From an uncultured bacterium (GTDB lineage: Bacteria > Patescibacteriota > Saccharimonadia > UBA4664): a stretch of 64,000 nt of DNA. Within the stretch, counting starts at the first letter, position 1. Every line of letters starts with the position of its first letter. The DNA is taken from assembly GCA_963740635.1 (NCBI GenBank), contig CAVUEQ010000001.1, positions 657,026-721,025 of the forward strand, written 5' to 3'. The translations under genes were made by a program, and so were the position numbers. A model generated the notes under the pieces. The model saw only the letters and a program-made list of their open reading frames with translations, ran no database searches and was not told the DNA's origin. Positions 11,448 through 56,305 of the stretch are shown here, one piece after another.

Positions 11448-14400
11448 GTGCTTAGACTACACCGCCGGGACCGGGTGAGCAACAACGAAGTCAGCCAGCT
11501 GCACGCGGCGGGGATGAAAACGCCGACGACGGTGGCGGCCGAGTGGGTGTATTACGTGGAGACTTCGGGCCGGCTGGGTGACGATGATGCAAAGAAGCTG
11601 AAGTGGTTGCTGGGCGAAACGTTTGACCCCCTGGGCACGCGCGAGGCAACCTTTTTGGGCGAGCACCCGAGCGTGATTGAGATCGGGCCGCGGCTGAACT
11701 TTGAGACGCCGTGGGCCAGCACCGCCCGGCAGATTTGCCACTCGGTGGGGCTCCGGGCGGTAGTGAGGATTGAGCGCGCGCGGCGGCTGGGTTTCCCGAA
11801 GCGGCTGAGCGAGGCCGAGCATGCGGACCTGGTGGCGGCGCTGGCCGACCGCATGACCCAGCAGCCCTACGGGCAAGCGCCGGAGACGCTGGTCGTGAGC
11901 GGGGAGCCGGAGCCGGTGCATGTGATACACGTAATGAAGCACGGGATTGAGGCGCTGCGCCGGGCCAATACCGACTTCGGGCTGGCCATGGACGAAGAAG
12001 ATCTGAACAATTACCTGGATCTGTTTGCCAACCGGCTGAAGCGCGACCCCACGGACGTGGAGATTTTTTCGCTGGGACAAGGGAATAACGAGCACGCGAG
12101 GCACGGGTTTTTCCGGGGCAGCCTGGTGCTCGACGGCCAGCCGCTGGGCACGAGCCTGATGAAGATAGTGAAGGCGCCATGGCAGGCCAACCCGAACAAT
12201 TCGGTGATCGCGTTTCATGATGATAGCTCGGCGATCGAGGGGCGGCGGGTGCACGTGATGGCGCCGGAGAGCCCCGGCGAGCCGAGCCCGTTTGAGCTCG
12301 ACGACCGCACCTACCACCCGACGCTGACGGCCGAGACGCACAATTTCCCCACCGGCATCGCGCCATACCCGGGGGCCGCGACCGGCACCGGCGGGCGAAT
12401 TCGCGACAACCAGAGCGTGGGGCGGGGCGGATTGGTGGTGGCAAGCGGCGTGGGTTACAGCGTCGGCAACTTGCACATTCCCGGCTATGACCTGCAGTGG
12501 GAACAGGACGGGGTGGCGCATCCGGCGAATTTGGCATCTCCCTTGGATATTTTGATCGCGGGCTCCAACGGCGCCTCGGATTACGGCAACTGCTACGGCG
12601 AGCCGGTATTGCTGGGGCACGTGCGGACATTTGGGCAGAAAATGCCCGGCGGGTACCGGGCTTGGTTTAAGCCCATCATGTATTCCGAGGGCGTGGGCAT
12701 GCTCGACGCACTGCATGCCGAAAAGGGCAAACCGGAGCCAAAAATGCTGATAGTACAAGTGGGCGGACCGGCCTACCGGATCGGTATGGGCGGGGGTGCC
12801 GCCAGCTCACTGATGAGCGGCGACAACACCGAGGCGCTTGATTTTAACGCGGTGCAGCGGGGCGACGCCGAGATGGAGCAACGGCTCAACCGCGTGATCC
12901 GCACGTGCATTGAGCTGGGAGCGGATAATCCGATCGTGAGCGCGCATGACCTGGGGGCCGGCGGCGATTCGAACGCGCTGCCGGAGATTGCCGAGCCGGC
13001 GGGGGCGCGGATTGACCTGCGGGCGATGCCGGTGGGCGACGCGACACTGTCGGTGCTGGAGATCTGGGGCAACGAATCGCAGGAGCGCGACGCGCTGCTG
13101 CTACGGCCGGAAGATTTGGAGCGGTTTGAGGCTATTTGCAAGCGCGAAAACGCGCCGTTTGCGGTGGTAGGCGAAATTACGGGCGACGGGAATTTGGTGG
13201 TGTACGACGACAGCAACCACAGTACGCCGGTAAACCTCCCCCTGGAGCCATTTCCGGGCGGGGTGCCGATAAAGACGGTGGAGCTCACAACGGTGGCGCC
13301 GGAACTGAAGCCGCTGAAGCTGCCGGGGGATTTGACGGTCCGGGAGGCGCTAGAGCGGGTGCTGCGGCTGGTGTCGGTGGGCTCCAAGAGTTGGCTAACG
13401 CGCAAGGTGGACCGGTGCGTGACCGGGTTGGTGGCGCAGCAGCAAGGAGTGGGGCCGCTGGAGACGCCGCTCGCCGACTTTGCGATTTCGGCGCACAGTT
13501 TGTTTGGCAATAGCGGCACGGTGCTGGCTCAGGGCGAGCGGCCGCTGATTGGATTAATTTCGCCTAGTGCCCAAGGGCGCATGACGGTCGGCGAGGCCCT
13601 CACGAACCTGATGGGGGCGCGCATTTCGGACCTCAGCGACGTGCGGGCCAGCGCCAACTGGATGTGGGCGGCCAAGCTCGAGGGCGAGGGCGCGCGGTTG
13701 TACGAAGCCGCCGTGGCCATGAGCGATACCATGACGGCGCTGGGCATGGCGGTGGACGGCGGCAAGGACAGCCTGAGCATGGCGGCCCAAACGCCGGCCG
13801 GGCTGGTGAAGGCTCCGGGGCAGCTGGTGGTGGCGCCGTATGCCGTGATGCCCGACGTGCGGCAAAAAGTGACGCCCGACTTTAAAGGTGAGGGCGACGT
13901 ACTGATATTGGTGGATTTGAGCGGTGGCCACGCCAGGCTGGGCGGGTCGGCGCTGGCCCAGGCCTACGGGCAAATCGGCGACGAGGCCCCCGACCTCGAC
14001 GACCCGGCGGTGCTCGGCCAGGCCTTTGCCAGCGTGCAGGGGTTAATCCGGCGCGGCCGGCTGCGCTCGGTGCACGACCGCAGCGACGGCGGCCTGCTGG
14101 TGACGGCGCTCGAGATGGCCTTGGCCGGCAATTTCGGCCTGGAGCTCGATTTGCCCGCGACCGATTCAGGGCCGCTGGCCGCGCTGTTTGCCGAGGAGCT
14201 CGGCGTACTGTTGGCGGTGAAGCCCGACAACGCCGAAGCGGTGCGGGCCGAGCTAGCCGCCGACCGGGTGGCGAGCGCCACCTTGGGCCGCGTGGGTGTG
14301 ACCGCCGGGCCCGTGCGCGTGCGGGTGGGCGGGAGCACAGTGCTCGACATGCCCTTGCACGAGCTGCGCGGCTTGTGGGAAGACACCGCCAGCCATCTCG

Positions 14401-15338
14401 ACGCGCTGCAAGCCAATCCGGACTGCGTGGCGGAAGAGGCCGAGCTGCTCAAATCGCCGCGCGTATCGCCGCGCTGGCACCTCACCTACACCCCTACCGG
14501 CGTGCGGCCGCCGGTGAGCAGCGGGGCGGCGCGGCCCAAGGTGGCTGTGCTGCGCGAGGCCGGCAACAACGGCGACCGCGAGATGGCCGGGTCGTTCCTG
14601 GCCGCCGGATTTGAGGTCTGGGACGTCACCATGAGCGACATTATTAGCGGCCGCACCCACCTCGGCCAGTTCCGGGGCGTGGCGTTCCCGGGCGGGTTCT
14701 CGTTTGGCGACGTGCTCGACGCCGGCAAGGGCTCTGCTGGAGTTATTCGGTTTAACAAGGTGCTGGCCAAGGAATTTGCCAACTTCTACGAGCGCCCGGA
14801 TACGTTTTCGCTGGGAACATGCAATGGCGCGCAGCTGATGGCGCTGCTGGGCTGGGCGCCGTTTATTAACCTGGCCGACGACGAGCGGCCGCGCTTCATT
14901 AGCAATACTTCGGGCCGGCTCGAGTGCCGATTCGTGACGGTGGAGATTGGGCCGAGCCCGGCGATTATGCTGCGCGGCATGGAGGGCAGCAGGCTGGGGG
15001 TGTGGGTCGCGCACGGCGAGGGCCGGCTGCACGTCCCCACGCCCGAGGTCATGAAGCAGATCGGCGAGCAGAACCTGGCCCCCATGCGGTACGTGGAGCC
15101 CGACGGCGGCCCCACCACGGCCTACCCGTTCAACCCCAACGGCAGCCCCGGCGGCATCACGGCATTGTGCTCGCCCGACGGCCGCCACCTGGCCATGATG
15201 CCGCACCCCGAGCGCCTTGCGAACGCCCTCTGGCAGTGGCCGTGGCTGCCGGAGGACTGGGCCTCGCTGCCCGCCAGCCCGTGGCTGCGCATGTTCCAGA
15301 ACGCCCGCGAGTGGTGCGACCGGCAGACATCCCGCTAA
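11448..15338 (+). CDS. purL: FGAM synthase, large single-chain form
   Basis: 1296-aa uninterrupted ORF with an FGAM-synthase core and a C-terminal glutamine amidotransferase (GTCNGAQL, HPER). The exact start is uncertain: GTG 11448 or GTG 11475. Confidence 0.92.
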   Translation: MLRLHRRDRVSNNEVSQLHAAGMKTPTTVAAEWVYYVETSGRLGDDDAKKLKWLLGETFDPLGTREATFLGEHPSVIEIGPRLNFETPWASTARQICHSVGLRAVVRIERARRLGFPKRLSEAEHADLVAALADRMTQQPYGQAPETLVVSGEPEPVHVIHVMKHGIEALRRANTDFGLAMDEEDLNNYLDLFANRLKRDPTDVEIFSLGQGNNEHARHGFFRGSLVLDGQPLGTSLMKIVKAPWQANPNNSVIAFHDDSSAIEGRRVHVMAPESPGEPSPFELDDRTYHPTLTAETHNFPTGIAPYPGAATGTGGRIRDNQSVGRGGLVVASGVGYSVGNLHIPGYDLQWEQDGVAHPANLASPLDILIAGSNGASDYGNCYGEPVLLGHVRTFGQKMPGGYRAWFKPIMYSEGVGMLDALHAEKGKPEPKMLIVQVGGPAYRIGMGGGAASSLMSGDNTEALDFNAVQRGDAEMEQRLNRVIRTCIELGADNPIVSAHDLGAGGDSNALPEIAEPAGARIDLRAMPVGDATLSVLEIWGNESQERDALLLRPEDLERFEAICKRENAPFAVVGEITGDGNLVVYDDSNHSTPVNLPLEPFPGGVPIKTVELTTVAPELKPLKLPGDLTVREALERVLRLVSVGSKSWLTRKVDRCVTGLVAQQQGVGPLETPLADFAISAHSLFGNSGTVLAQGERPLIGLISPSAQGRMTVGEALTNLMGARISDLSDVRASANWMWAAKLEGEGARLYEAAVAMSDTMTALGMAVDGGKDSLSMAAQTPAGLVKAPGQLVVAPYAVMPDVRQKVTPDFKGEGDVLILVDLSGGHARLGGSALAQAYGQIGDEAPDLDDPAVLGQAFASVQGLIRRGRLRSVHDRSDGGLLVTALEMALAGNFGLELDLPATDSGPLAALFAEELGVLLAVKPDNAEAVRAELAADRVASATLGRVGVTAGPVRVRVGGSTVLDMPLHELRGLWEDTASHLDALQANPDCVAEEAELLKSPRVSPRWHLTYTPTGVRPPVSSGAARPKVAVLREAGNNGDREMAGSFLAAGFEVWDVTMSDIISGRTHLGQFRGVAFPGGFSFGDVLDAGKGSAGVIRFNKVLAKEFANFYERPDTFSLGTCNGAQLMALLGWAPFINLADDERPRFISNTSGRLECRFVTVEIGPSPAIMLRGMEGSRLGVWVAHGEGRLHVPTPEVMKQIGEQNLAPMRYVEPDGGPTTAYPFNPNGSPGGITALCSPDGRHLAMMPHPERLANALWQWPWLPEDWASLPASPWLRMFQNAREWCDRQTSR

Positions 15339-17037: not shown

Positions 17038-19005
<1,968 letters not shown>

Positions 19006-19038
19006 GGTTAGATTGTACATCTTTGCTACAATGTCGCT

Positions 19039-20641
19039 ATGCAGAATCCTCTTGAAACTCCGGCTGCAGCAGCACCCACTGAAAAAGCCCCGGCCCTGTC
19101 GCCGCTGATGGAGGGTTTGGTGAAACTGTTGCGCACCAAGCAGCCGCCGGCCTGGAAGGGGGCCAAAATCCATGTGCCGGAGATTACTTCCGGCGCTTAC
19201 TTCCTCTACGAGCAAATCCGCAATGCAGTCGAATACCGCGAGCAGCACCTGTTTTTGCGGGGGGCGATCGAGCGGTTTTTGCTGCGCGAGCTGGGGTCGG
19301 CCGAGCCGGAAAGCATCGGGTTTGAGCTGGTCAGCGAACTCACCAAAACCCGCTACCTGGCCAACGACACGATTACCGACGAGCACGTCGCCTACCTGGA
19401 TTACCTGGTGGATCGCTATGCGACGCTGCAAAAGCTGGCTTTGGCGCACGGCAAACCCGATTACGACCAGGTAGCCACGGCCATTGTGCAACTGCTGAGC
19501 GTGGAGCTCGAGCGGGCGTTGCACCCGCATCCCACCGAGGCGGCGATCGTGGAGTTTACCTACGCGTCGTTTATTAAGCACGCCGACGTGCCGCGCGAAG
19601 ACCAGCTGGTCCTGTACGCCGCCGTCCACAAGGCGCTCTTGAAATCGGACTTGGCCACCATCCGCTACGGTGTGTTTTCGCGCAAGTTCCCCCGCTGGCT
19701 CGAGGACGACGCGCAGCTCGAGGCGGCCGGCGCCGGCTTTAGCGGCCTGAACAATGAGCTGGCGGAGCAGATTGGGGGCTCACAGCCGCACCGGATGTTT
19801 AGGCTGGTGCGCCGGCACATCGCCCCGTATCTGATCCTGCGCGAAATCATTAAGACCAGCACCAAAGGCCTCGAGCAGCTGTCCACCACACCGAGCGTGC
19901 TCATGGAGAAGGCCCGCAGCGTGGCCGAGCAGCAGTACCAGGTGGCGTCGGCGCGGCTGAAGCGCAGCGTGGTGCAGGCTATGATTTTCTTGTTTGTGAC
20001 CAAAATGGTGATCGGCGTACTGATCGAAATTCCGTACGAGCTGTTTGTTTATGGTGAGGTCAACCCTGTGCCGCTGGCGATCAACCTGATATTCCCGCCG
20101 CTGTACATGGCCGCGGTCGGGTTTGGCATCAAGACGCCGGGCCCGCGCAACACCACCAAAATCCTCAGCGACCTCAAGCTCATCGTGTACCAATCAGAAC
20201 AGCCGCTCAGCTACACGTTGCGCACCCGCGGCCGCCGCTCGAGCGTACGCGGCGCCTTCAACCTGTTTTTACGGGCTCACTTCCCTGCTGACGCTGGCCG
20301 GCATTTCGTACCTGCTGCAACTGGTGGGCTTCAATATTGTCAGCGGCATCATCTTCTTCGTGTTCCTGTCGACCGTAAGCTTCTTCGCCTACCGTATTTC
20401 CAACTCCGTCCGCGAGTACGCGGTGATCGACGAAGACACCGGTTTTTTCACGACCCTGAGCGATTTTTTACTGACGCCTTTCATACGCACGGGGCAATGG
20501 CTGGCCGAGCGCTACAGCCGCATCAACATCTTCACAGCCATCCTGGACATCATTATCGAAACACCATTCAAGACCCTGCTGCGCATCATCGAGCAGTGGA
20601 ACGCCTTCCTGCGCGACAAGCGCGACGACGTCCTGCGCTAG
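19039..20641 (+). pseudogene. Hypothetical polytopic membrane protein with a frameshift at a T5 run (20266-20270)
   Basis: ORF 19039..20679 becomes an Arg/His/Pro-rich tail after ...RGAFNLF. The hydrophobic continuation GLTSLLTLAGISYLLQLVGFNIVSGIIFFVFLSTVSFFAY... is in the frame of ORF 20123..20641. TGCTACAAT-N6-ATG lies at the start. Confidence 0.6.
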
Positions 20642-23464: not shown

Positions 23465-23974
23465 ATGAGCTCTCCGACACAATTTGAAGCCAAAACCCCG
23501 CTCGATAAGTTTTTTCAGGCCGGCATTTTGCTGAAGGCCATCGACGGGCTGCTCGAGATAATCGGCGGTGTGCTGTTGCTGTTTGTGAAGCCGGCATACT
23601 TGGACCAGTTTGCGGTCACGTTGACGCAGCACGAGCTAGTAGAGGATCCGCACGACTTTGTAGTCAGCCACCTGGTGATGATTTTGCAGGCCGGCAAGGG
23701 TTCACTGCTGTTTGGGGCGGTGTATCTGGTGACGCATGGGCTGGTGAAGATATTGCTTGTGAGCGAGATTCTGCGCGGGCGGCTGTGGGCCTACCAGGGA
23801 CTGATCTGGTTTACGGTCGGGTTTATGGTTTACCAGACTTACCGGTTCGCGTATTCGGGCTCGGTGCTTATGATAGTGCTGACCTTGTATGACGCGGTAG
23901 TGGTGTGGCTGACGGTGGTGGAGTACCGCAAGCGGCGAGGGGACCGGCAAGCGGGTGAAACTCAGGCAGTGTAG
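23465..23974 (+). CDS. DUF2127-like membrane protein
   Basis: FFQAGILLKAIDGLLEIIGGVLLLFV pattern and four hydrophobic helices. TGCTACAAT-N6-ATG supports the start at 23465. Confidence 0.6.
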   Translation: MSSPTQFEAKTPLDKFFQAGILLKAIDGLLEIIGGVLLLFVKPAYLDQFAVTLTQHELVEDPHDFVVSHLVMILQAGKGSLLFGAVYLVTHGLVKILLVSEILRGRLWAYQGLIWFTVGFMVYQTYRFAYSGSVLMIVLTLYDAVVVWLTVVEYRKRRGDRQAGETQAV

Positions 23975-25428
23975 GACGTGGAGCTGGTGGTGCCGCCGTG
24001 GCCGGTCCAGTTGGTGTGGAAGAATTCGCCGCGCGGTTTGTCCACGCGCTCGTAAGTGTGCGCGCCGAAGTAATCGCGCTGGGCCTGGAGCAGGTTCGCG
24101 GGCAGGCTGGCGGTGCGGTATCCGTCGTAGAACGCCAGCGCGGTGCTGAAGGCCGGCACCGGGATGCCTTTCTTGACGGCCGCGGCGACGACGTTGCGCC
24201 AGGCGCCTTGAGCGGCGTTGATCGCCTCGTGGAAGAACGGCTCCAGCAGCAGGTTGGTGAGCTCGGGATCGTTGTCGAAGGCTTCCTTGATGTCGCCGAG
24301 GAACCGGCTGCGGATGATGCAGCCGCCGCGCCACATCAGCGCGATGCCGCCGTAGTTGAGGTTCCAATTGTATTCCGCGGCCGCCGCGCGCATGAGCATG
24401 TAGCCCTGCGCGTAGCTGACGATCTTCGAGGCGTAAAGCGCATGGCGGATGTGCTCGATGAACGCCTTGCGCGGTCGCCGGGCTGCGGCGGGCTTGGGGC
24501 CCTTGAACACCTTGGCGGCCTCCACGCGCTCGTCTTTCAGCGCCGACAAACGCAGCGGCGAAGACCGCCTCGGCGATCAGCGTGATCGGGAATTCCGAGG
24601 TTGGCCGAATTGATGACGGTCCATTTGCCCGTGCCCTTTCTGGCCGGCGGTGTCGAGAATCTTGTCCACCAGCGGCTGGCCGTCCGTGTCTTTGAAGGCC
24701 AGGATGTCGCGGGTGATTTCGATGAGGTAGGTGTCGAGCTCGCCTTTGTTCCATTCGGCGAAGACTTCGTGCATTTGCTCGGCGGCGTCAGGCCAGGCTG
24801 GTCCTCATGATGTGGTAGGCTTCGCAGATGAGCTGCATGTCGCCGTATTCGATGCCGTTGTGGACCATCTTCACGTAATGGCCGGCGCCGCCCTCGCCCA
24901 CCCAATCGCAGCACGGCGTGCCGTCTTCGACTTTGGCGGCGATGCCCTGGAAGATGTCCTTCACGTGCGGCCACGCGGCGGGCGAACCGCCGGGCATGAT
25001 CGCCGGGCCCATGCCGCGCGCCTTCTTCGCCGCCGCTCACGCCGGTGCCGATGTAAAGCAGGCCCTTGATCTCGACGTATTTCACGCGGCGGGCGGTGTC
25101 CTCGAACAGCGAATTGCCGCCGTCAATGATGATGTCGCCGGGTTCGAGGTGCGGCAGGAGGTGCTCGATGAATTCGTCCACTGGCTTGCCGGCCTTGACC
25201 ATCAGCATCACGCGGCGGGGGCTTTTGAGCTGCGCGACCATTTCCTCGATGAGTGGGCGCCGATGACCTTCGTGCCCTTGGCTTCGTTGGCGAGGAAGTC
25301 GTCCACCTTCTGATGGTGCGGTTGTAGGCCACGACGGTGAAGCCGTGGTCGTTCATGTTGAGGATGAGGTTCTGGCCCATCACGGCCAGGCCGATGACGG
25401 CGATATCGGCGGTAGGTTCGGGTTTCAT
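23962..25428 (-). pseudogene. gnd: 6-phosphogluconate dehydrogenase (decarboxylating) broken by at least 8 single-base indels
   Basis: A conserved 6PGD sequence is recoverable only by hopping frames. The segments are MKPEPTADIAVIGLAVMGQNLILNMNDHGFTVVAYNRT | QKVDDFLANEAKGTKVIGAHS | LIEEMVAQLKSPRRVMLMVKAG...[13 protein letters not shown] | [18 protein letters not shown]...[10 protein letters not shown] | GLTP | [24 protein letters not shown]...DTAGQKG | [15 protein letters not shown] | [10 protein letters not shown] | ..LSALKDERV...GAHTYERVD. Shift sites are near 25316, 25250, 25005, 24793, 24783, 24635, 24587 and 24555. Confidence 0.9.
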
Positions 25429-26737: not shown

Positions 26738-27640
26738 ATGTCGAAAACAAAACCGAAGCACCGGCCCGGCAGCCTGGCCAGGGTGATAGTCCTGGGGATT
26801 GCCGCGTTGTCACTGCTGTATATGGTGCTGATGCATGGTCACAATGTGCAGGTGCTTAACCCGAAGGGCTTCGTTGCACAAGAAGAGCTAGGGATGATTA
26901 TTTTTTCCACAATCGTGCTGCTGGCGGTGGCGGTGCCAACTGTCGGGGTGCTCTACTTCACCGCCTGGAAGTACCGTGAGTCCAACACCAAGGCCAAGCA
27001 CGACCCGCAGATGCAGGGCGGTAAGCTGTTCCTGCTAGCGACGTGGGGGATTCCCATCGTTTTTATGAGCGTGCTGAGCGTAGTGATGTGGACTGCGACT
27101 CACAAATACGTGCCTCAACAAACTATTCCCGCATCGGTCAAACCGCTGAGGGTGGAAGTGGTGGCGATGAGGTGGAAATGGCTATTTATCTATCCCGAGC
27201 AGCACATAGCGACCGTAAACTTTGTCCAAATGCCGGTTAATACCCCGGTAACCTTTGAACTGACCGCCGACGATGCACCCATGAGTGGGTTTTGGATCCC
27301 GAACCTGGGCGGCATGCTGTACGCCATGACCGGCCACCTGAACCCCCTCAACCTGATGGCACAGACGCCGGGTGATTATGAAGGCAGATCAGGCGAAATC
27401 AACGGCGCCGGCTTTGCTGACATGAAATTCACGGCCAGGGCTAGCTCCAAGGCAGAATTCGATGACTGGGTGGTCGATATGCGGCAGTCGGGGGGTGTAC
27501 TCGATGACGCTGAGTACCAAAAATTGCTCAAGCCCAGCGAAGCTAATCCCGCCACGTTCTACTCGGATTACGAAAAGGGGTTATATGCTACAGTGCTTAC
27601 GAAATACTCGGGCTCACATAACCACGGCGGACAAGAATGA
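26738..27640 (+). CDS. cyoA: Quinol oxidase subunit II (no CuA ligands seen)
   Basis: ORF 26705..27640. Preferred start is ATG 26738, with GGAG upstream. Two N-terminal TM helices and a cupredoxin domain with GRSGEINGAGFADMKF in place of the CuA Cys/His motif. Confidence 0.85.
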   Translation: MSKTKPKHRPGSLARVIVLGIAALSLLYMVLMHGHNVQVLNPKGFVAQEELGMIIFSTIVLLAVAVPTVGVLYFTAWKYRESNTKAKHDPQMQGGKLFLLATWGIPIVFMSVLSVVMWTATHKYVPQQTIPASVKPLRVEVVAMRWKWLFIYPEQHIATVNFVQMPVNTPVTFELTADDAPMSGFWIPNLGGMLYAMTGHLNPLNLMAQTPGDYEGRSGEINGAGFADMKFTARASSKAEFDDWVVDMRQSGGVLDDAEYQKLLKPSEANPATFYSDYEKGLYATVLTKYSGSHNHGGQE

Positions 27641-29754
27641 ACTGGCAGGAAGTAATCCTCGGTAAGTTAACTACCCAGGCGTTGCCGCACGAATGGTTTA
27701 CTATTGGCGGGACGATCGGCTTTATACTGCTACCATTCCTGGGCGTGATCGCACTTGGCTGGATCAAGGGCTGGAAGTGGTTGTGGGGAGAGTGGTTCAC
27801 CTCGGTTGACCCGAAGCGAATCGGCATCATGTACATGATTGTGGCCGGGTTTATGCTGTTGCGCGGCGGCCTGGACGCACTTATGCTCTGGCTGCAGCAG
27901 GCGCTGGGAGCCAGTAACATGCCCGGTTTTCTGGGCGTCCAGCACGGCTACCTCTCGGCCAGCCACTTCCAACAGATCTTCACAGCCCATGGCAACATCA
28001 TGGTGTTTTTCGTGGCGATGGCCTTCATCTTCGGGCTCATCAACTTCATCGTGCCATTGCAGATTGGCGCGCGTGACTTAGCGTTTCCGTTTTTGAATAC
28101 GCTCGGGTTTTGGCTCTACGTGGCCGGCGTAGTCATGGTAAACATGTTCTTCGCGCTGGGCGGCGAATACGCCGCGACCGGCTGGCTGGCGATAGCACCG
28201 CTACAGGGCAAGGAGTTTAGCCCCGGTGTGGGGGTGGACTATTGGATCTGGAGCCTTCAGATTTCCGGCATTGGCACCACCTTGAGTGCGCTGAACTTCA
28301 TTGTGACCATTATCAAGATGCGCGCACCCGGCATGACCATCTGGAAGATGCCGCTGTTTACCTGGGGCTCGCTGTGCAGCATGCTGATGGCGATCACGGT
28401 CTTCCCGCTGCTGACCGCTACGCTCTTCCTGTCCTTTTTCGATCGCTACATCGGCACGCACTTCTTCACCATCACGGCCGGGGGCGATCCTATGCTGTAC
28501 ACAAGCATGATCTGGATGTGGGGGCATCCCGAGGTCTATATTCTGGTGCTGCCGGCCTTTGGAGTGTTTTCTGAGGTGGTGTCGACCTTCAGCCGCAAGC
28601 CGGTCGCCAGCTACGCGACTGCGGTATTGGGTATGGTCGGCGTCTCGTCACTGGGACTTTCGGTGTGGCTGCACCACTTCTTCACGATGGGGGCCGGCGC
28701 CGACGTCAACGCGTGGTTCGGGCTGATGAGCATGATAATTGCGATCCCGACGGCGGTGCTAATGTATACCTGGATCGCCACGTTGTACAAGGGCCGGATT
28801 CGGTTTGCTACCCCGATGCTGTGGTTTTTGGGGTTTGTCTTCACTTTCACGATCGGCGGCTTGAGCGGCGTAATGCTGGGTATACCGACGGCGGATTTCC
28901 AGCTGCACAACAGCCTGTACCTGGTGGCCCATTTCCACGCCAACGTGGTCGGTGGGGTGCTCTTCGGTATCTTTTGCGGCATTACCTTCTGGTTCCCCAA
29001 GTTTGCGGGCTTTAGGCTCAATGAGCGGATCGGGAAGAACGCCTTCTGGTTCTGGATTGTGGGGTTCTGTTTGTCATTTATACCGATGATGATTCTGGGG
29101 CTAATGGGGGCTACCCGCCGCCTTGACCACTACGACGCCTCTACCGGCTGGCAGCCGTTGTACATCACTATGCTCATCGGCGGCCTCCTCATAGCGAGCG
29201 GCGTGGGCTTGCAGCTGGCTCAGATTTTGGCCAGCATTATTGAGCGCAAACGCCTGGCAGATACGACCGGAGATCCATGGAATGGACGGTCGCTGGAGTG
29301 GTCCACCGCCTCACCGCCTCCGGCCTATAACATCAGCAAAATTCCGACCGTGACCACTCGTGATGCGTTTTGGGAAATGAAGCAAAAAGGCCAGGGCGAG
29401 CCGGCCTACGAGGATATCCACGTCGTTAAGAATACCGCTGCCGGCATCTACATCTCCATCTTCGCTTTCCTCGCGGGCTTTGGCTTCGTCTGGAACATAG
29501 TGTGGCTGTGGGTGGCGTCGCTAATAGCGATAATCGTGAGCATTGTGGTGCGGTCATTCACCGAGGACACCGAGTATACAGTGACGGCGGCCGAGGTGAA
29601 GGCGCTCGAGGAAGAGCGCCTGAAGCACGTGCCTGATGCCCCGCCCGCAAGTGTCAGTGATCCCGATGAAGACATGGGAGTATGGGACCTGGTGAAGTGG
29701 TTGATGGCGTTTGCTTTGGATATTGTGAGGAGGAAACGATGGCGGAAGCAGTAG
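27637..29754 (+). CDS. cyoB: Heme-copper quinol oxidase subunit I
   Basis: 705-aa ORF: GMIWMWGHPEVYILVLPAFG, LWFLGFVFTFTIGGLSGV and HFH motifs. ATGA overlap with subunit II. Confidence 0.93.
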   Translation: MNWQEVILGKLTTQALPHEWFTIGGTIGFILLPFLGVIALGWIKGWKWLWGEWFTSVDPKRIGIMYMIVAGFMLLRGGLDALMLWLQQALGASNMPGFLGVQHGYLSASHFQQIFTAHGNIMVFFVAMAFIFGLINFIVPLQIGARDLAFPFLNTLGFWLYVAGVVMVNMFFALGGEYAATGWLAIAPLQGKEFSPGVGVDYWIWSLQISGIGTTLSALNFIVTIIKMRAPGMTIWKMPLFTWGSLCSMLMAITVFPLLTATLFLSFFDRYIGTHFFTITAGGDPMLYTSMIWMWGHPEVYILVLPAFGVFSEVVSTFSRKPVASYATAVLGMVGVSSLGLSVWLHHFFTMGAGADVNAWFGLMSMIIAIPTAVLMYTWIATLYKGRIRFATPMLWFLGFVFTFTIGGLSGVMLGIPTADFQLHNSLYLVAHFHANVVGGVLFGIFCGITFWFPKFAGFRLNERIGKNAFWFWIVGFCLSFIPMMILGLMGATRRLDHYDASTGWQPLYITMLIGGLLIASGVGLQLAQILASIIERKRLADTTGDPWNGRSLEWSTASPPPAYNISKIPTVTTRDAFWEMKQKGQGEPAYEDIHVVKNTAAGIYISIFAFLAGFGFVWNIVWLWVASLIAIIVSIVVRSFTEDTEYTVTAAEVKALEEERLKHVPDAPPASVSDPDEDMGVWDLVKWLMAFALDIVRRKRWRKQ

Positions 29755-42543: not shown

Positions 42544-44001
42544 TCACAGTGTATCAATCTCATCTAGCTGCTCTTTACTATAGCCGCCATAAATTAAGTT
42601 AATGCGAGTTCCAGGCGTCAACCGTGTGAGGGGTAGCTCAATCCCGTTGCGATCCTTAATTTTCCCTTTATAGGGATTTTGGAAGATCTGGGTGACCTCT
42701 TGACCCGCTTGTGTCTTCGCATGAATCGCGCCTTGAGTTCCGGCTGTATCAACTGAAAGGAGTGTGAGATTTGTCGTTGTACCCGGGCAGTAGTAGCTCG
42801 CCGCTCCAGCGTCGATAAGTTTGCAAAATCGGGGGTCTTGAGCCGACTCCTGGATAACGATTTTATATACGTAAACTTTATTCGTCCGGTTATCCTGCCT
42901 CCAGTAGTACGTAATTACACTGCCGGGCTTTGCGTAGAAAGAGTCAGATGATTTCCCGTCTGGTGTAAAGTACTTGGCTTGGCTCTGGTCTATTCTGGAA
43001 GCCTGCGTGTCGGTGGGGCCATCCAACGACATCGCAGCTATCTCGAAAGCTGGATCGCGACTAATTACCAGCATGTCCTTATCGACCCGGATATCTTGAT
43101 TGTAGACCTGCGCACTCGGCACCTGATATGTGAAGCATTGCTTCCCAGCCGCGTGATGAAGGAAATCTCTAGGCTTTGTACCGCCAGAGGCGTCATAGTG
43201 AAACCACCCACATAGTTGATAGTTTGTACCGATATAGAAGAATTCGACGTTGTCCTCTCGAGCGATAGCCTCGGGATCAATATGTTGCGCAGGGAGGTTT
43301 TTAAATGCATCCGCGATTTTGTCTGCTGTTTCCTGTAAATGGGGACCCATCACCCTATCCTGGTAGTGCCTCCAGGCGAGGGGGAAAGTAAAGTAAATGA
43401 AGAGAACGGAACACACGAAAAGTGCGGTAATAATTGCTAGCTCGCGCTTTCCGATATTAATGGGCGTTCCAATGGATCTACCGCCCAGACGAATTGCGGC
43501 ATAAATTGCTAGCCCTAGCTGTGAACAAATGATGAGATTTCTGGTCTGGATCAGTATATTGATAAGAATTTCGGGGCGTTGAAATGCGTATGAGTTGCTG
43601 AAGAGATGAGATAGGGTAGCCGCCAATTGACCAACGAGTACAAGTACCGCAATTTGTGCAACTTGTTTGTTGCGGAAAACACCCAAAAGTAACGCTACCA
43701 ATAGTACTAAGAACGGAATGATAAATAAGATTAACCCACCTAGCCAATTCGTTGGTGAACAGGTATCCACGAAACCTATAGCACAGGCATTGATAGGATA
43801 AATAGCCTGATGGAAACTGTATAGCAGTCTGGATGGTGGGAGGAGATAGGCTAGGGTGCCACAGAAAATCAATGCCGATATTGCTAGGGATAATTTGTTG
43901 TTTGTCGGCGAGTTTGGCTTTGTCGGGATGGGGAGTTTTGTAGATTTGGAATAATTTTCCGGGTTTATCTCGGATGTGATTGTTGGTGGCGTCGTGTCCA
44001 T
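42544..44001 (-). CDS. Hypothetical polytopic membrane protein with a large extracytoplasmic C-terminal domain
   Basis: 485-aa ORF in a low-GC patch. No family recognised. Confidence 0.5.
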   Translation of the reverse strand: MDTTPPTITSEINPENYSKSTKLPIPTKPNSPTNNKLSLAISALIFCGTLAYLLPPSRLLYSFHQAIYPINACAIGFVDTCSPTNWLGGLILFIIPFLVLLVALLLGVFRNKQVAQIAVLVLVGQLAATLSHLFSNSYAFQRPEILINILIQTRNLIICSQLGLAIYAAIRLGGRSIGTPINIGKRELAIITALFVCSVLFIYFTFPLAWRHYQDRVMGPHLQETADKIADAFKNLPAQHIDPEAIAREDNVEFFYIGTNYQLCGWFHYDASGGTKPRDFLHHAAGKQCFTYQVPSAQVYNQDIRVDKDMLVISRDPAFEIAAMSLDGPTDTQASRIDQSQAKYFTPDGKSSDSFYAKPGSVITYYWRQDNRTNKVYVYKIVIQESAQDPRFCKLIDAGAASYYCPGTTTNLTLLSVDTAGTQGAIHAKTQAGQEVTQIFQNPYKGKIKDRNGIELPLTRLTPGTRINLIYGGYSKEQLDEIDTL

Positions 44002-47222: not shown

Positions 47223-47918
47223 TCAGGCTTTGACCCGGGCTAGGTTCTTGAGCGCGGCGGCAGCAGCTTCTTGCTGGCCGGCCTGCTTGCTGGAGCCGGA
47301 GCCCTGGCCATACAGGGTGTCGCCCACGTACACGCCGATGGTGAAGGTTTTGTCGTGGTCGGGGCCGGCTTCGTCCATGACTTTGTAACCCGGCGTGAGT
47401 CCGAAGCGCTCCTGGGCCAGCTCCTGGAATTTGCTCTTGGGGTCCATCCAGGTACCAGTCTCGAGGATTTCGGGCAGGCGCGATATGATGTGTCCGGTGA
47501 TGAATTTCTTGGCGGTGTCGTAGCCCTGGTCCAGATATGCGGCGCCGATAATCGCCTCCACGGCGTTGGCCGAAATGAGCGCGTGCGAGCGGGAGTTACC
47601 CTTGGATTCGCCCCGGCTGAGCTTGAAGTGCCCGGCGATCTGGAGCTTTTCGGCCACGGCCGCCAGCGACTCGGTCTTCACCAGCGCCGAGCGCCAGTTG
47701 GTGAGGTCGCCCTCGGGATTGGAATAGTTACGGTAGAGGTAATCGGTGACGACCAGCTCGAGCACGGCGTCGCCGAGGAATTCGATGCGCTCGTTGTGCT
47801 CCAGGCCGGGCTTGGGGTGCTCGTTGAGGTAGCTGCGGTGGATGAAAGCGCGCTCGAGCAAGCTCACATCATTAAATTGGATGCCGATGCGGTCCTGGAA
47901 GTCTTGTAGCGGTTTCAT
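47223..47918 (-). CDS. rnc: Ribonuclease III
   Basis: 231-aa ORF: NERIEFLGDAVLELVV signature plus a dsRBD. Confidence 0.92.
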   Translation of the reverse strand: MKPLQDFQDRIGIQFNDVSLLERAFIHRSYLNEHPKPGLEHNERIEFLGDAVLELVVTDYLYRNYSNPEGDLTNWRSALVKTESLAAVAEKLQIAGHFKLSRGESKGNSRSHALISANAVEAIIGAAYLDQGYDTAKKFITGHIISRLPEILETGTWMDPKSKFQELAQERFGLTPGYKVMDEAGPDHDKTFTIGVYVGDTLYGQGSGSSKQAGQQEAAAAALKNLARVKA

Positions 47919-48463
47919 GCCGCGGCTCCTTGGACTTTGGCGCTGCGGGCCTTGGCCTTGGGATTCGGGAGCGAGTGCTGCAGCTTGGTGAGGCCCAGGC
48001 GGAACAGGCGCTCAGTGTCGCGGTATTCGATGAGCCCCAGGGCCTTGTCGGCCGGGAACCATTTGGCGTCCACGATGCCTTCCGAATCTTCGGGGATTAC
48101 GGCGTCGGTGTTGCCGAGCGCCTCCATGAGGAACACGTGAGTGGTCATGAAGATGAGTTTGCCCTCCTTGCGGTAGAAAAAGTGCAGTTTATCGAGCTTG
48201 TCGCCGAGGCGGAAACGGGTGAGGCCGGTTTCTTCGGCGACCTCGCGCAGGGCGGTCTGCTCCAGGCTTTCGCCGGCTTCTACGTGGCCCTTGGGGATGG
48301 TCCAGCGGCCGAGGCGGTCCTGGATCATCAGGATCTCGACGCCGTCACCGGGCACGCGGCGGTACACCACGCCCCCGGCGGTGTATTCGCGGACGGCTTT
48401 ACCGGCGCGGTTATTTTTCGGTTTGGTCTGCCGGTTTGGCCGGCGGTTCTTCTTCTGGTTCAT
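47915..48463 (-). CDS. NUDIX hydrolase
   Basis: Nudix box [22 protein letters not shown]. Start placed at the internal Met (MNQKKNRR). The start is uncertain and the gene overlaps the nusB 3' end. Confidence 0.75.
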
Positions 48464-48887
48464 AAAATTCGCTATTCCGGTAAATGGTCCCCAGCACGCC
48501 GTTGATGAATTTGCTGGAGTTTTCGCCGCCGAAGGTTTTGGCCAGCTCAACGGCTTCGTTGATGGCCACCTTCGGCGGCACGTCGCGCTTGATCATCAGC
48601 TCGTAAACGCCGATGCGCAGGACGATTTTGTCGATCTTGGCTATTTGCTCCACCGGCCATTCAGGAGCGGCCGGACCGATGATGCCGTCGATCTCGGCCT
48701 GGTGCTTGTGCACACCGTCCACCACGTCCTCCACGAAATTCGTGTCGTCGATGCTGGAGCGGAACTCGTCGAGATTGCGCTGCAGAATGGGCGCGAGCTC
48801 GAGTTCGGTTTGGTCGCCGGCCCGAAAATCGTGCTCGTAGAGCGTTTGCATGGCCACGATGCGGCCGAGGTGTCGGTTGGAAGCCAT
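48411..48887 (-). CDS. nusB: Transcription antitermination factor NusB
   Basis: 158-aa ORF: [10 protein letters not shown]...[16 protein letters not shown]...[15 protein letters not shown]. Confidence 0.88.
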
Positions 48888-52616: not shown

Positions 52617-55600
52617 CTAGGCCTTCACCACGAAGTTGACTAGCTTGCGGGGAACCACGATGGTTTTGACGATTTTGCCTTCGGCCAGGTATTTGGCCAC
52701 CTTGGCGTCGGCTTTGGCGGCCTCGGTGAGCTCGGCCTCGGAGGCGTCGGCGGCGAGCACCAGGTTAGCCCGCACCCGGCCGTTGACCTGCACCACTACG
52801 GTAACGAGGTCGTCTTTGATGAGTTCGGGGTCGTATTTGGGCCAGCCGGCCACGTGGATGCTCTCTTCATTGCCAAGGTCGCGCCACAGTTCTTCGGCGA
52901 CGTGGGGCGTGATGGGCGCCAGCAGCAGGAGCAGAGTGCGGACGGTTTCTTGGGCGAGGCCGCTGTAGCTGGGGTCGGTAAGGTGCTGGTGGATGCGAGG
53001 GCTGGTGAGGAAATTGACGTATTCCATCAGGGTGCTGACGGCGGTATTGAAACGCATGTCGTGGAGGTCGTCGTGGATTTTCTTGATGGTTTTGTGGGTG
53101 AAGCGACTGACCTCCGTGGCGATTTCGGCGGTGTTGGGCGCGGATTCGCGGCTGGGGTCGTGCCGATTGGCGATGAGGTCGTGGGCCAGCGTCCACACCT
53201 TATACACGAAACGGCTGGAGCCGGCCAGGCGCTCGGCGGACCAGGGGGTGGTTTCGTCGTAGGGCGCCATGAAGAGGATGTACAGGCGCAGGGTGTCGGC
53301 GCCGTGGGTGGCGATGATGTCGGTGGGGTTGATGACGTTGCCCAGCGATTTGCTCATTTTGCGGCCGTCCGAAGCCAAGACTATGCCTTGGCCGCGGCGG
53401 GCGGTGTAGGGTTCGGGGGTGGGGACGAGGCCTTGGTCGTAGAAGAATTGGTGCCAGAAACGCGAGTAAAGCAGGTGGAGCGTGGTGTGCTCCATGCCGC
53501 CGAGGTAGAGGTCGACTGGGCCCCAGTACTTCATGGCTTCGGGGTCGGCGAAGGCCGCGGAGTTGTGCGGGTCGGCGTAGCGCAGATAATACCAGCTGGA
53601 ACCGGCCCAGTTGGGCATGGTGTCGGTCTCTCGTGTGGCCGGGCCGCCGCACTTGGGGCAAGTGGTGTTGACCCACTCGTCTACTTTGGCCAGGGGCGAC
53701 TCCCCCGTTTCGGTTGGTTCATAATGCTTGACGTCGGGCAGCCTCACCGGAAGCTCGGAGTCGGGGACAGGGATAGCTTTCGTCAGCAACGTCACGTGCC
53801 ACGCAACCAGGCCGTACTTCTTAATCTTTTCGCCGTATTCGGGTCGATGATGCTCGTAATGCGCAGCCAGTTCTTCGCCATTCTTGAACGTATGCCCGAA
53901 AGCGGCTGTTACAGCGTCCTTGTCGGCGGCCAAGTCGTCGACAGTTTTGTAATGTCGCGACGTTTTGATCTCGGCATAAACGGTATCGCTGGCTGAAGTC
54001 AACTTGATGATCGAACTGGGCTGTATACCCGCATACTCAGGAATTGCTGCACGCGTCATAGCGGACTTGTCGCCCTGGACAAGCTCCTGGAAACTGCTCG
54101 GATCCGCAAAATCGACTTCGGGAGCACCCGAGAATTTTGACGCGTCGACACAGTGCGGGCAATGAATTATGGGAATCGGCTCGCCCCAGTAGTGCTGGCG
54201 GGAGAAAATCCAGTCGCGCAGTTTGTACTTCACCGACGGCTTCCCGGCGCCCTTTTTCTCCAGTGCGGCCACGATTGCTTTTTTGGCTTTATCCCCCTCC
54301 AGGCCGTCAAACTCGCCGGAATTTATCAATTTTCCGTAACCCGTGTATGCATCCGCTCCTTTGGGTGCGGTTACGACTTGGACAATGGGCAGGTGGAAAG
54401 TCTTGGCAAATTCGCCGTCGCGCTCGTCGTGGGCCGGGACGGCCATGATGGCGCCGGTGCCGTAGCTGCCGAGCACATAATCGGCTACCCAGACCGGGAT
54501 CAGTTCTCCGGTAAGCGGGTGGATGGCCTTCACGCCGGTGTCGAAGCCGGTTTTGGTTTTGTCGTCCTCCTGGCGCTGGAGCTCAGTTTCGGTGAGAGAT
54601 TTTTTGACATAGCGGCTCACTTTTTCATCTGGTTCCCACCCTGCCTTCATCCACCGGTCAGCGACCTCGGGAGAGACGACCAAAAAAGTAGCGCCGAAGA
54701 GCGTGTCCTGCCGAGTGGTGAATACTGTAAGCGGGTCCGACACCGCCTCGAGGACTGCTGGTTCTTGATCACCACAAAAGTGGCTTTCTTGCACTGTACC
54801 CGCGGTGACTTTGACGCCAAATTTCTGGGCCAGGAAGTCGGCGCGCTCAGACGGCACCGCATAATCTTCGCTGGCACGTAGGACCACCACTTCCTCGACG
54901 TTCCGCTTGATCGCAGCCCAGTCGAATGTCCAATCGTTTTTCCGTTCAAACGGACGCTCATTGTCTTTAAAGCCCGGCTGGGCGAAGCCGGCTACGAGCA
55001 CGAGTTTGCGGATCGGCGTTTGCAATTGTTCGACAACTTTTAAAGCGACCGGCGCCCCGAAGCTGTGACCCATGAGGACGGTATCTTTATTAAATGTGCA
55101 GTTCTTAAGCGCATAATCCGCTTGCTCGGTGATACTGGGGTCGTTGGTATTGGGCAGGTCTGGCGCTTCGACTTTGGACGTCTTAGAAAGTATTTTGCTG
55201 AGCCAAGGGAAAAAGACCTCGTTGCCCTTACCCGAGGAGCCATGGAGAAGGACGTAATTGCTGGCGAGACTGGCGACAGGGAACGTGATTTCGGCGCCAT
55301 CGGAGCGGCCGATCCAGTTGACCTGCTGGTCGGCGATGCGCGGCGGATAATCCACGGACCCCAGGCCGTCGATGAGGCGGTCGGCGTAGGCGGTGATATG
55401 CAGCATCCACTGTTTGAGCAGCTTCTTCTCGACCGGGGTGCCGCAGCGCTCATGACGCCCGTCCACGACTTCCTCGTTGGCCAGGCCGGTTTTCTCCTTT
55501 GGGCACCAGTTAATGGCCATCTCGGCCTGGTAGGCGAGCCCGGCCTCAAAGAATTTCAAAAACAGCCACTGGGTCCACTTGTAGTAATCGGGGTCGGTGG

Positions 55601-55982
55601 TGTTGACCTCGCGGTCCCAGTCGAAGCTGAAGCCCATGCCGTCGAACTGAGTGCGGAACGTGGCTACATTCTCAGCCGTAGCGTCCTGCGGGCGGATTTT
55701 GTGCTTAATGGCGTAATTTTCAGTGGGCAGGCCAAAGGCGTCGTAGCCCATCGGGTAGAGCACATTGAAACCCTGCATGCGCTTGTGGCGCGCCATGACG
55801 TCGCCGAGGGTGTACTCGCGGATGTGGCCGGCATGCAGACCCGCGCCCGACGGATACGGGAACTCGGTGAGCATGTAGTACTTCTCGCGGGTACGATCGC
55901 CCGTGACGGCGGCATACAATTTGGTATCGGCCCAAATTTTCTGCCACTTGGGCTCTATGCTTTTAGGGTCGTATTTCGTCAT
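52617..55982 (-). CDS. leuS: Leucyl-tRNA synthetase carrying two inserted domains
   Basis: The track ORF runs to 56015. The canonical N-terminus MTKYDPKSIEPKWQKIW begins at 55982. HAGH (HIGH) and KMSKS motifs are present. The CP1 motifs TTRQDT and AVPAHDERD are intact. Extra segments are at 54735-55274 and 53778-54149. Confidence 0.92.
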   Translation of the reverse strand: MTKYDPKSIEPKWQKIWADTKLYAAVTGDRTREKYYMLTEFPYPSGAGLHAGHIREYTLGDVMARHKRMQGFNVLYPMGYDAFGLPTENYAIKHKIRPQDATAENVATFRTQFDGMGFSFDWDREVNTTDPDYYKWTQWLFLKFFEAGLAYQAEMAINWCPKEKTGLANEEVVDGRHERCGTPVEKKLLKQWMLHITAYADRLIDGLGSVDYPPRIADQQVNWIGRSDGAEITFPVASLASNYVLLHGSSGKGNEVFFPWLSKILSKTSKVEAPDLPNTNDPSITEQADYALKNCTFNKDTVLMGHSFGAPVALKVVEQLQTPIRKLVLVAGFAQPGFKDNERPFERKNDWTFDWAAIKRNVEEVVVLRASEDYAVPSERADFLAQKFGVKVTAGTVQESHFCGDQEPAVLEAVSDPLTVFTTRQDTLFGATFLVVSPEVADRWMKAGWEPDEKVSRYVKKSLTETELQRQEDDKTKTGFDTGVKAIHPLTGELIPVWVADYVLGSYGTGAIMAVPAHDERDGEFAKTFHLPIVQVVTAPKGADAYTGYGKLINSGEFDGLEGDKAKKAIVAALEKKGAGKPSVKYKLRDWIFSRQHYWGEPIPIIHCPHCVDASKFSGAPEVDFADPSSFQELVQGDKSAMTRAAIPEYAGIQPSSIIKLTSASDTVYAEIKTSRHYKTVDDLAADKDAVTAAFGHTFKNGEELAAHYEHHRPEYGEKIKKYGLVAWHVTLLTKAIPVPDSELPVRLPDVKHYEPTETGESPLAKVDEWVNTTCPKCGGPATRETDTMPNWAGSSWYYLRYADPHNSAAFADPEAMKYWGPVDLYLGGMEHTTLHLLYSRFWHQFFYDQGLVPTPEPYTARRGQGIVLASDGRKMSKSLGNVINPTDIIATHGADTLRLYILFMAPYDETTPWSAERLAGSSRFVYKVWTLAHDLIANRHDPSRESAPNTAEIATEVSRFTHKTIKKIHDDLHDMRFNTAVSTLMEYVNFLTSPRIHQHLTDPSYSGLAQETVRTLLLLLAPITPHVAEELWRDLGNEESIHVAGWPKYDPELIKDDLVTVVVQVNGRVRANLVLAADASEAELTEAAKADAKVAKYLAEGKIVKTIVVPRKLVNFVVKA

Positions 55983-56305
55983 GCTGTGAACATTATACCG
56001 GCTGGTGTCAATCAACCAGCTGCCGTTTGAAGAATGCGACGGTGGCAGCGTTGATTTTGGCGAGCATGCGGACCAGGGCCATTCGGCTTCGCTAAGAATC
56101 CGGCAAGGTTTAGTCCCAAGTGCGTTGGAATAGAAATTTTTTCGCTCATATTCATGGATTTTAGCATTACTTATAAGAGAATGATGAGCTCTGAACGTAT
56201 TTTCCGTTTACACATACTGCAAGGGGTTACCGAATTCCGGACAGCTACAATTTTTTTGAGCTCAAATTGGACAGTGGTGTCCGGGTTTCGGTATAGTGCC
56301 TGGCT

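Follow-up and report, generated by a model that had tools for sequence, protein, structure and literature searches.

What is a serine hydrolase doing inside the editing domain of an essential aminoacyl-tRNA synthetase? The question is raised by leuS, the gene encoding leucyl-tRNA synthetase (LeuRS; the protein of this gene is called LeuS), in a 64,000-nucleotide stretch of contig CAVUEQ010000001.1 (assembly GCA_963740635.1; the whole stretch is hereafter called the window, and positions are counted from its first letter) from a Saccharimonadia bacterium (Patescibacteria/Candidate Phyla Radiation, CPR). In this gene, a complete alpha/beta hydrolase of family PF06821, with the size of YdeN and RBBP9 and an intact catalytic triad, interrupts the first beta-hairpin of CP1, the editing domain, in a LeuRS that is canonical in other respects. 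The clade to which it belongs is tied to LeuRS, both by nesting at three loops of the synthetase and by free-standing copies encoded upstream of leuS. On the ground of these neighbouring copies, the nested hydrolase is probably an undescribed helper of LeuRS, and the reading favoured here, with moderate confidence, is that of an accessory acyl or aminoacyl-ester hydrolase functionally coupled to the synthetase.

The leuS open reading frame (ORF) occupies 52617..56015 on the minus strand and encodes 1132 aa from a TTG codon at 56015, or 1121 aa if translation starts from the ATG at 55982. The latter codon (aa 12) is likely the true start, because homologues and the LeuRS of Thermus thermophilus align from aa 12; residue numbers throughout refer to the 1132-aa ORF. 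The parts of the gene relevant to the insertion are the following.

52617..55982, minus strand: leuS, bacterial-type leucyl-tRNA synthetase (TIGR00396 leuS_bact, 982.6 bits against a cut-off of 548.4)
55824..55835, minus strand: HIGH signature of the synthetic site, reading HAGH
55275..55319, minus strand: host strand NWIGRSDGAEITFPV (aa 233-247), the first CP1 strand, on the N-terminal side of insertion site A, equivalent to about T. thermophilus residues 222-236
54735..55274, minus strand: nested YdeN/RBBP9-type serine hydrolase (aa 248-427), assigned by PF06821, YdeN 1UXO and an AlphaFold2 (AF2) model
54150..54734, minus strand: remainder of CP1 (aa 428-622), with TTRQDT at 54702-54719 and GTGAIMAVPAHDERD at 54417-54461
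53346..53360, minus strand: KMSKS signature of the synthetic site

The host can be assigned to the bacterial-type LeuRS by its TIGR00396 score, its signature motifs and its collinearity with a solved LeuRS, since in silico excision of both inserts (the hydrolase and a second domain described below) left an 818-aa LeuRS collinear with T. thermophilus LeuRS 1H3N (E 1e-231). An earlier note on this DNA, made from the letters alone, had considered the editing motifs of the host intact; the threonine-rich peptide TTRQDT and GTGAIMAVPAHDERD are indeed both present, as are HAGH and KMSKS. The Pro-to-Gln change in the threonine-rich peptide (54702-54719, minus strand) is unique in an alignment of 121 LeuRS, comprising the window LeuRS and its 120 closest cluster representatives, which also served for the survey of nested domains below. 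In addition, the leucine-specific domain, which occupies about 55 residues before KMSKS in T. thermophilus, is missing in LeuS around 53300-53420 (minus strand), and the alignment to T. thermophilus LeuRS accordingly skips from chain residue 580 to 637 near KMSKS.

A stretch of 180 residues (nt 54735-55274) separates WIGRSDGAEITFPV (aa 234-247) from LTVFTTRQDT (aa 429-438), where Saccharibacteria LeuS without an insert and T. thermophilus LeuRS have only a short hairpin turn of a few residues. The Pfam CP1 profile PF13603 matched the uncut protein from aa 426 over profile positions 20-184, and after in silico excision of the insert the match became contiguous over positions 2-184, so that the hydrolase lies inside CP1 as Pfam defines this domain. 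It takes the place of the turn at about T. thermophilus residues 237-241, and the editing-peptide threonines Thr247, Thr248, and Thr252 follow a few residues further on. The excision test and the Thermus alignment thus bear out the earlier placement of about 180 extra residues inside CP1, ahead of the threonine-rich peptide. The accompanying remark that the insert was lower in GC than the rest of leuS was accurate for the comparison with the cores, GC at third codon positions (GC3) being 0.63 in the hydrolase insert and 0.81 and 0.83 in the N-terminal and C-terminal cores, respectively (other window genes, mostly 0.72-0.84); however, the CP1 remainder (0.69) and the second, ASCH-like insert (0.62) are low as well, and the dip covers the whole middle of leuS and is not insert-specific.

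The insert matched the Pfam family PF06821 (Ser_hydrolase) with 48.1 bits, above the gathering cut-off of 22 (E 1.7e-12, profile positions 1-148 of 172), Bacillus subtilis YdeN (1UXO) at E 2.4e-11, and RBBP9 at E 5e-4. Its AF2 model, computed from 23 sequences, reached a pLDDT of 95.2 and a pTM of 0.92, and the best matches of this model in the Protein Data Bank (PDB) were YdeN 1UXO and RBBP9 2QS9/7OEX, with a TM score of 0.84 over 183-186 columns. The YdeN/RBBP9-type identity that had been proposed for aa 248-427 was therefore recovered by profile, sequence, and predicted fold. Four short motifs carry the predicted active site.

55239..55250, minus strand: LLHG (aa 256-259), with a His (H11 of the insert) that does not vary across the family alignment
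55056..55070, minus strand: nucleophile elbow GHSFG with the catalytic serine Ser318, aligned with the serine of YdeN AHSLG and with RBBP9 Ser75
54855..54872, minus strand: SEDYAV with the triad acid Asp384, aligned with the DD motif of YdeN
54777..54788, minus strand: ESHF with the triad histidine His412, aligned with GGHF of YdeN

Ser318, Asp384, and His412 align with the triads of both YdeN and RBBP9, in agreement with the GHSxG elbow followed by Asp and His that the earlier note had read from the letters, and LLHG may correspond to the usual oxyanion-hole HG motif of alpha/beta hydrolases. Across 171 full-length family domains, the triad positions held Ser in 167/171, Asp or Glu in 166/171, and His in 167/171, and Ser-(Asp/Glu)-His was kept in all of the LeuRS-nested copies at site A (64/64) and at a second site, B (12/12), which argues for selection on catalysis. 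Searches of the insert against Pfam and NCBIfam returned alpha/beta-hydrolase families only, with no match to CP1 (PF13603), YbaK/INS (PF04073), tRNA_SAD/AlaX, or DTD; the hydrolase may act like an editing factor, yet it lies outside the known editing-domain families. Furthermore, a PADLOC scan of both inserts gave no defence-system match, a search of viral contigs found no relative, a word-index search returned a single match for the hydrolase insert and none for the second insert, and a metagenome scan added one more nested case.

An assembly chimera or an intein might also account for the extra residues, and the exact window LeuS protein is in fact absent from the gene-position collection, no independent assembly of the same sequence being found. 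Against a chimera, both junctions are in frame and the same junction recurs in many independent assemblies, the hydrolase being located at the identical residue in L001, L002, L003, L025, L028, and L029 and, beyond these loci, in dozens of JGI, ENA, NCBI, and Logan cluster representatives. Against an intein, the insert has no Hint/intein match in Pfam, and its junctions (FPV/ASLASNY and EAVSD/PLTVF) show neither a starting Cys/Ser nucleophile nor a terminal His-Asn followed by Cys/Ser/Thr. The probability of a chimera or an intein is therefore regarded as negligible. With a significant family match, a confident fold, no intein features, and an architecture that recurs in dozens of independent assemblies, nothing remains of the scenarios that the earlier note had named as refuting its reading. 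A mobile-element scar was also rejected, since the flanks of both inserts contain only short repeats at chance level and no target-site duplication. Hits starting at the hydrolase (P0004 and similar) looked like parts of a split LeuRS; in L029, the single case checked at the DNA level, the ORF is continuous (1175 aa), so that for P0004 the apparent split is a gene-calling artefact. A real in-frame TAA was found only in the metagenome contig L001 (1132-1146), where it stands exactly at the C-terminal hydrolase junction and LeuRS is called as ORFs of 295 and 588 aa; this codon could be a sequencing error or mark a pseudogene or a truly split LeuRS.

Among the 121 LeuRS, 43 were plain and 78 contained at least one nested domain (hydrolase, Nudix, or ASCH), in 16 architectures distributed over three hot-spot loops. 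The hydrolase occupied site A, as in the window, or site B (past AHDERD...LPI..V, within CP1), and it also occurred at site C in LeuRS elsewhere; nested Nudix domains, one to three per LeuRS, were mostly located at site B, whereas ASCH was found at site A and an ASCH-like domain at site C. One N-terminal extension aside, all inserts of at least 40 aa lay within aa 247-746, i.e., the CP1 and catalytic-core region, and none was detected in the anticodon-binding or C-terminal half. The presence of nested domains was patchy across the LeuRS core tree. For instance, P0158 (825 aa, plain) and P0152 (hydrolase at A and Nudix at B) share the synteny of the window (MurA-MurF-leuS-YceD-NusB-Nudix-RNase III-SMC). 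The closest relative, P0151, with a core identity of 75-88%, has hydrolases at A and B, and its site-A copy is 34% identical to that of the window; hydrolase copies 52% identical to the window insert are held by LeuRS more distant than P0151. Because insert identity does not follow host identity and syntenic orthologues differ, the guest domains are evidently gained, lost, and replaced. Moreover, the hydrolase would be an exchangeable accessory module and not a core part of LeuRS, because close orthologues lack it, hold it elsewhere, or carry a very different copy. This widespread modular pattern, like the second nested domain of LeuS, had been missed in the earlier note.

The closest free-standing relatives of the insert are complete proteins of about 180 aa that match it end to end and are 40-50% identical to it. 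DNA context was recoverable for six of them, and all six (6/6) are encoded upstream of leuS on the same strand.

P0003: leuS 36 nt downstream
P0005: leuS 6 nt downstream
P0016: leuS 24 nt downstream, encoding a LeuRS with a nested Nudix domain
P0040: leuS 2 nt downstream
P0011: leuS 1.35 kb downstream
P0009 (L034, 6001-10882): operon of the hydrolase, a second hydrolase, a YbaK/EbsC-like tRNA_edit protein, an RdgB/Ham1 NTP pyrophosphatase, and an archaeal-type LeuRS

The archaeal-type LeuRS of the P0009 operon matched TIGR00395 with 784 bits, and the genes of this operon overlap or abut on a contig with a GC content of 0.33. The GC content of the six contigs ranges from 0.33 to 0.49, and their LeuRS are about 50% identical or less to that of the window. 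The nested hydrolase was found in none of these LeuRS; the nested and upstream-gene distributions are complementary, because LeuRS with an upstream hydrolase gene lack the nested one. The adjacency of the closest free-standing relatives to leuS is considered the decisive evidence for a specific link with LeuRS. In addition, the pairing of esterase and Ham1 in the operon mirrors that of nested esterase and Nudix, and P0084 is a free-standing esterase-Nudix fusion. At a greater evolutionary distance, relatives of the domain occur as inserts in ValRS, AlaRS, Fmt, GatA, and TsaD, a group of proteins that all deal with tRNA or aminoacyl-tRNA.

The chemistry of the two characterized members of the family, RBBP9 and ML-005, provides a further indication of function. 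YdeN, the founding member of PF06821/COG3545, shares with the window hydrolase the family, the fold (TM 0.84/0.81), the length of about 180 aa, and the Ser-Asp-His order; YdeN is a free-standing protein, whereas the window hydrolase is nested whole in another enzyme and belongs to a clade with a genomic link to leuS. Human RBBP9 (2QS9, 7OEX) has the same fold and triad, whereas the sequence similarity is weak and its alpha-amine anchor, Glu108, is not conserved in the LeuRS-linked clade. To our knowledge, RBBP9 has no link to tRNA. The enzyme hydrolyses aminoacyl amides, and single amino acids with a free amine (Leu/Ile, Phe, Tyr, and Trp) become bound to it as acyl-enzyme intermediates (PMC8866121); this chemistry resembles aminoacyl-ester cleavage. 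Furthermore, ML-005, a homologue of YdeN, is a short-chain esterase, and the YdeN structure study, as cited in the ML-005 paper, noted the absence of a lid and suggested soluble esters or thioesters as substrates (PMC6119806). Since this family chemistry (RBBP9 and ML-005) fits aminoacyl-ester hydrolysis, an accessory hydrolase coupled to LeuRS is the favoured explanation.

Under this explanation, an active hydrolase would work with LeuRS in cis in the window, being carried on the mobile CP1 close in sequence to the editing peptide, and in trans elsewhere. Its likely role would be an extra quality control on substrates unhandled by the intact CP1 pocket, the candidates being mis-acylated or blocked aminoacyl-tRNA(Leu) or released aminoacyl-adenylate. 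The idea of an added proofreading or deacylase activity, which the earlier note had put forward, has thereby gained circumstantial support from the adjacency to leuS in 6/6 cases, once beside a YbaK-type deacylase. A further step, that the LeuRS-linked YdeN-like hydrolases represent a new alpha/beta-hydrolase class of proofreading or repair factor for aminoacyl-tRNA or aminoacyl-adenylate, acting in cis or in trans, is put forward only tentatively.

The known proofreading modules, i.e., CP1 of LeuRS, IleRS, and ValRS and the YbaK/ProX (PF04073), AlaX, and DTD families, offer the nearest comparison for such a role. The window hydrolase sits inside CP1 beside the threonine-rich peptide; like INS/YbaK for ProRS, such a hydrolase is found in cis or is encoded by a gene of its own next to the synthetase; and in the L034 operon its companions include a YbaK-type domain and LeuRS. 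It is not homologous to these modules, however, having an alpha/beta-hydrolase fold and a serine nucleophile. We know of no described editing factor with an alpha/beta-hydrolase fold, and literature searches found no alpha/beta-hydrolase aminoacyl-tRNA deacylase. Other synthetases have acquired an additional domain as well, examples being the N-acetyltransferase domain embedded in a bacterial IleRS (NCBIfam NF040702) and the domains appended to synthetases of eukaryotes. The LeuRS guest differs in being nested two levels deep (the hydrolase in CP1, and CP1 in the Rossmann fold) and in being one of several interchangeable guests at three hot spots.

Several observations weigh against a functional coupling to LeuRS. 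LeuRS that carry the hydrolase and those that lack it alike retain the canonical CP1 editing motifs, so that no editing gap is evident, and substitution of the hydrolase for a decayed editing site was rejected on the same grounds. Nudix and ASCH domains, of unrelated chemistry, are interchangeable with the hydrolase at the same LeuRS loops. The hydrolase is dispensable, because its distribution is patchy among close, syntenic orthologues. RNA-binding adaptation was likewise rejected: the nested and the free-standing copies are equally acidic (median pI 5.8), with no shift between them. The residue corresponding to the alpha-amine anchor of RBBP9 is Glu in the window and, as noted above, varies in the clade. 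Finally, more distant relatives are also nested in SecA, UvrA, and Der, or fused to a methyltransferase, riboflavin kinase, glyoxalase, or Nudix. A looser coupling to LeuRS is conceivable, because such relatives sit in unrelated housekeeping proteins and Nudix and ASCH swap at the same loops.

The same observations would suit an autonomous housekeeping esterase that merely rides on LeuRS, as one of several small 'house-cleaning' hydrolases (esterase, Nudix, ASCH) lodged in the three insert-tolerant loops and thereby co-expressed with the synthetase in a streamlined genome, with no mechanistic link to aminoacylation or editing; the relatives in SecA, UvrA, and Der and the fusions to unrelated enzymes, the exchange with Nudix and ASCH, the 16 architectures with their patchiness in close orthologues, the intact editing motifs, and the acidic pI shared with free-standing copies are all consistent with it. 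A rider of this kind hardly explains, however, why all six free-standing copies lie upstream of leuS on divergent contigs, next to LeuRS of both bacterial and archaeal type and once together with a YbaK-type deacylase, why the hydrolase is nested in LeuRS at three separate sites, or why the anticodon-binding half is free of inserts. It is accordingly held unlikely, while being taken as the most serious competitor of LeuRS coupling. A leucine-supplying aminopeptidase, trimming N-terminal hydrophobic residues from scavenged peptides for the benefit of LeuRS in an organism that depends on imported amino acids, is more doubtful still. The ability of RBBP9, an aminopeptidase, to trap Leu/Ile, Phe, Tyr, and Trp as acyl-enzyme intermediates (PMC8866121), the coupling of the gene to leuS in operons, and the nesting of distant relatives in ValRS and AlaRS speak for such a supply function, but the operon partner in L034 is a homologue of aminoacyl-tRNA deacylases and not a peptide transporter or peptidase, the alpha-amine anchor is not conserved in the clade, and it is not obvious how the co-nested Nudix or Ham1 modules would serve the supply of amino acids.

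The patchy distribution, the divergence of inserts (34% identity) between nearest hosts that are 75-88% identical in the core, and the GC3 of the insert below that of the gene termini speak for an in-frame passenger, selfish or neutral, that is retained only since its imprecise loss would kill an essential gene. By contrast, the triad kept in 64/64 site-A copies indicates selection for catalysis, free-standing copies are maintained in leuS operons, and terminal repeats and homing or intein features were not found, which makes a passenger very improbable. An accessory hydrolase working with LeuRS therefore stays the favoured explanation for the nested domain.

LeuS contains a second nested domain, which is located downstream of the hydrolase.

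53781..54149, minus strand: divergent domain of ASCH/PUA-like fold (aa 623-745) at site C, assigned by AF2 and Foldseek

This domain sits between the HCPHC motif and the AIPVPDSELPV strand. Its AF2 model had a pLDDT of 90.4, and Foldseek matched the model to PH0355 (2Z0T; E 1e-6, TM 0.69-0.79), with other matches to PF0455, the Escherichia coli ac4C amidohydrolase YqfB (9KYF), a Lactobacillus crispatus ASCH domain (3S9X), and EF3133 (1T62). In terms of predicted fold it is thus an ASCH/PUA-like beta-barrel, whereas at the sequence level the Pfam ASCH profile PF04266 gave 13.6 bits (E 0.11), below the gathering score of 21.2, and hhalign aligned only 36 columns with the set of nested ASCH domains. 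Homologues at site C were detected in only three others of the 121 LeuRS (P0163, P0182, and P0185). P0163 (1616 aa, JGI) carries five nested domains, namely a hydrolase at A, three Nudix domains at B, and an ASCH-like domain at C, and tandem Nudix pairs occur at site B in several other LeuRS.

A subfamily assignment was attempted for the nested Nudix domains, and none was reached. A free-standing Nudix ORF of the window (47918-48592, minus strand) matches the hidden Markov model (HMM) of the LeuRS-nested Nudix domains at E 2e-13; a matching Nudix gene lies between NusB and RNase III in L026 and L028 and about 1-3 kb downstream of leuS in most Saccharibacteria loci, and the Nudix gene located 16 nt upstream of leuS in L029 is a different one.

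Elsewhere in the window, which has a GC content of 0.59, further genes of potential interest were recorded.

11448-15338, plus strand: PurL (FGAR amidotransferase)
4913-6364, minus strand: adenylosuccinate lyase
27637-29754, plus strand: cytochrome oxidase subunit I
17806-19629, minus strand: phosphoglucose isomerase (PGI) ORF
8939-10462, 23702-24754, and 42544-44001, all minus strand: ORFs of low GC3

PurL, adenylosuccinate lyase, and cytochrome oxidase subunit I represent an unusually rich metabolism for a Saccharibacterium. The phosphoglucose isomerase ORF contains about 255 residues upstream of the PGI domain without a Pfam match, which are either the result of a mis-set GTG start or an unrecognised N-terminal extension. 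The three ORFs of low GC3 (about 0.49-0.56, compared with 0.72-0.84 in other genes) may have been acquired horizontally; of the two that were scanned against Pfam, 42544-44001 gave no match and 8939-10462 matched a PEP-utilising mobile domain only.

With respect to novelty, the earlier note knew of no synthetase with an esterase inserted in CP1, and the literature searches likewise found none for LeuRS: full-text searches turned up no account of LeuRS with a nested hydrolase, Nudix, or ASCH domain, and the AARS Online paper makes no mention of hydrolase domains, CPR, or Patescibacteria. Automated naming at JGI has already produced 'leucyl-tRNA synthetase / MutT / predicted alpha/beta hydrolase', and as far as found the LeuRS-hydrolase architecture is thus present in databases and apparently not in the literature. 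According to a 2026 survey, the LeuRS editing domain never acts as a host (PMC13114784); contrary to that survey, it acts here as a host for further domains. Moreover, swappable enzyme cassettes are present in two thirds of the Saccharibacteria LeuRS nearest to that of the window, so that the nesting and turnover of domains can be studied here in a natural system, on an essential enzyme of symbionts that are still poorly understood.

Known synthetase proofreading comprises a handful of families, namely CP1, INS/YbaK, AlaX, and DTD, and a serine esterase coupled to LeuRS through gene order as well as repeated nesting would add a new proofreading fold and indicate a class of error or damage beyond CP1. 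If the hydrolases are such factors, the LeuRS of these ultra-small symbionts would be a modular quality-control platform that recruits Nudix, Ham1, ASCH, and YbaK modules.

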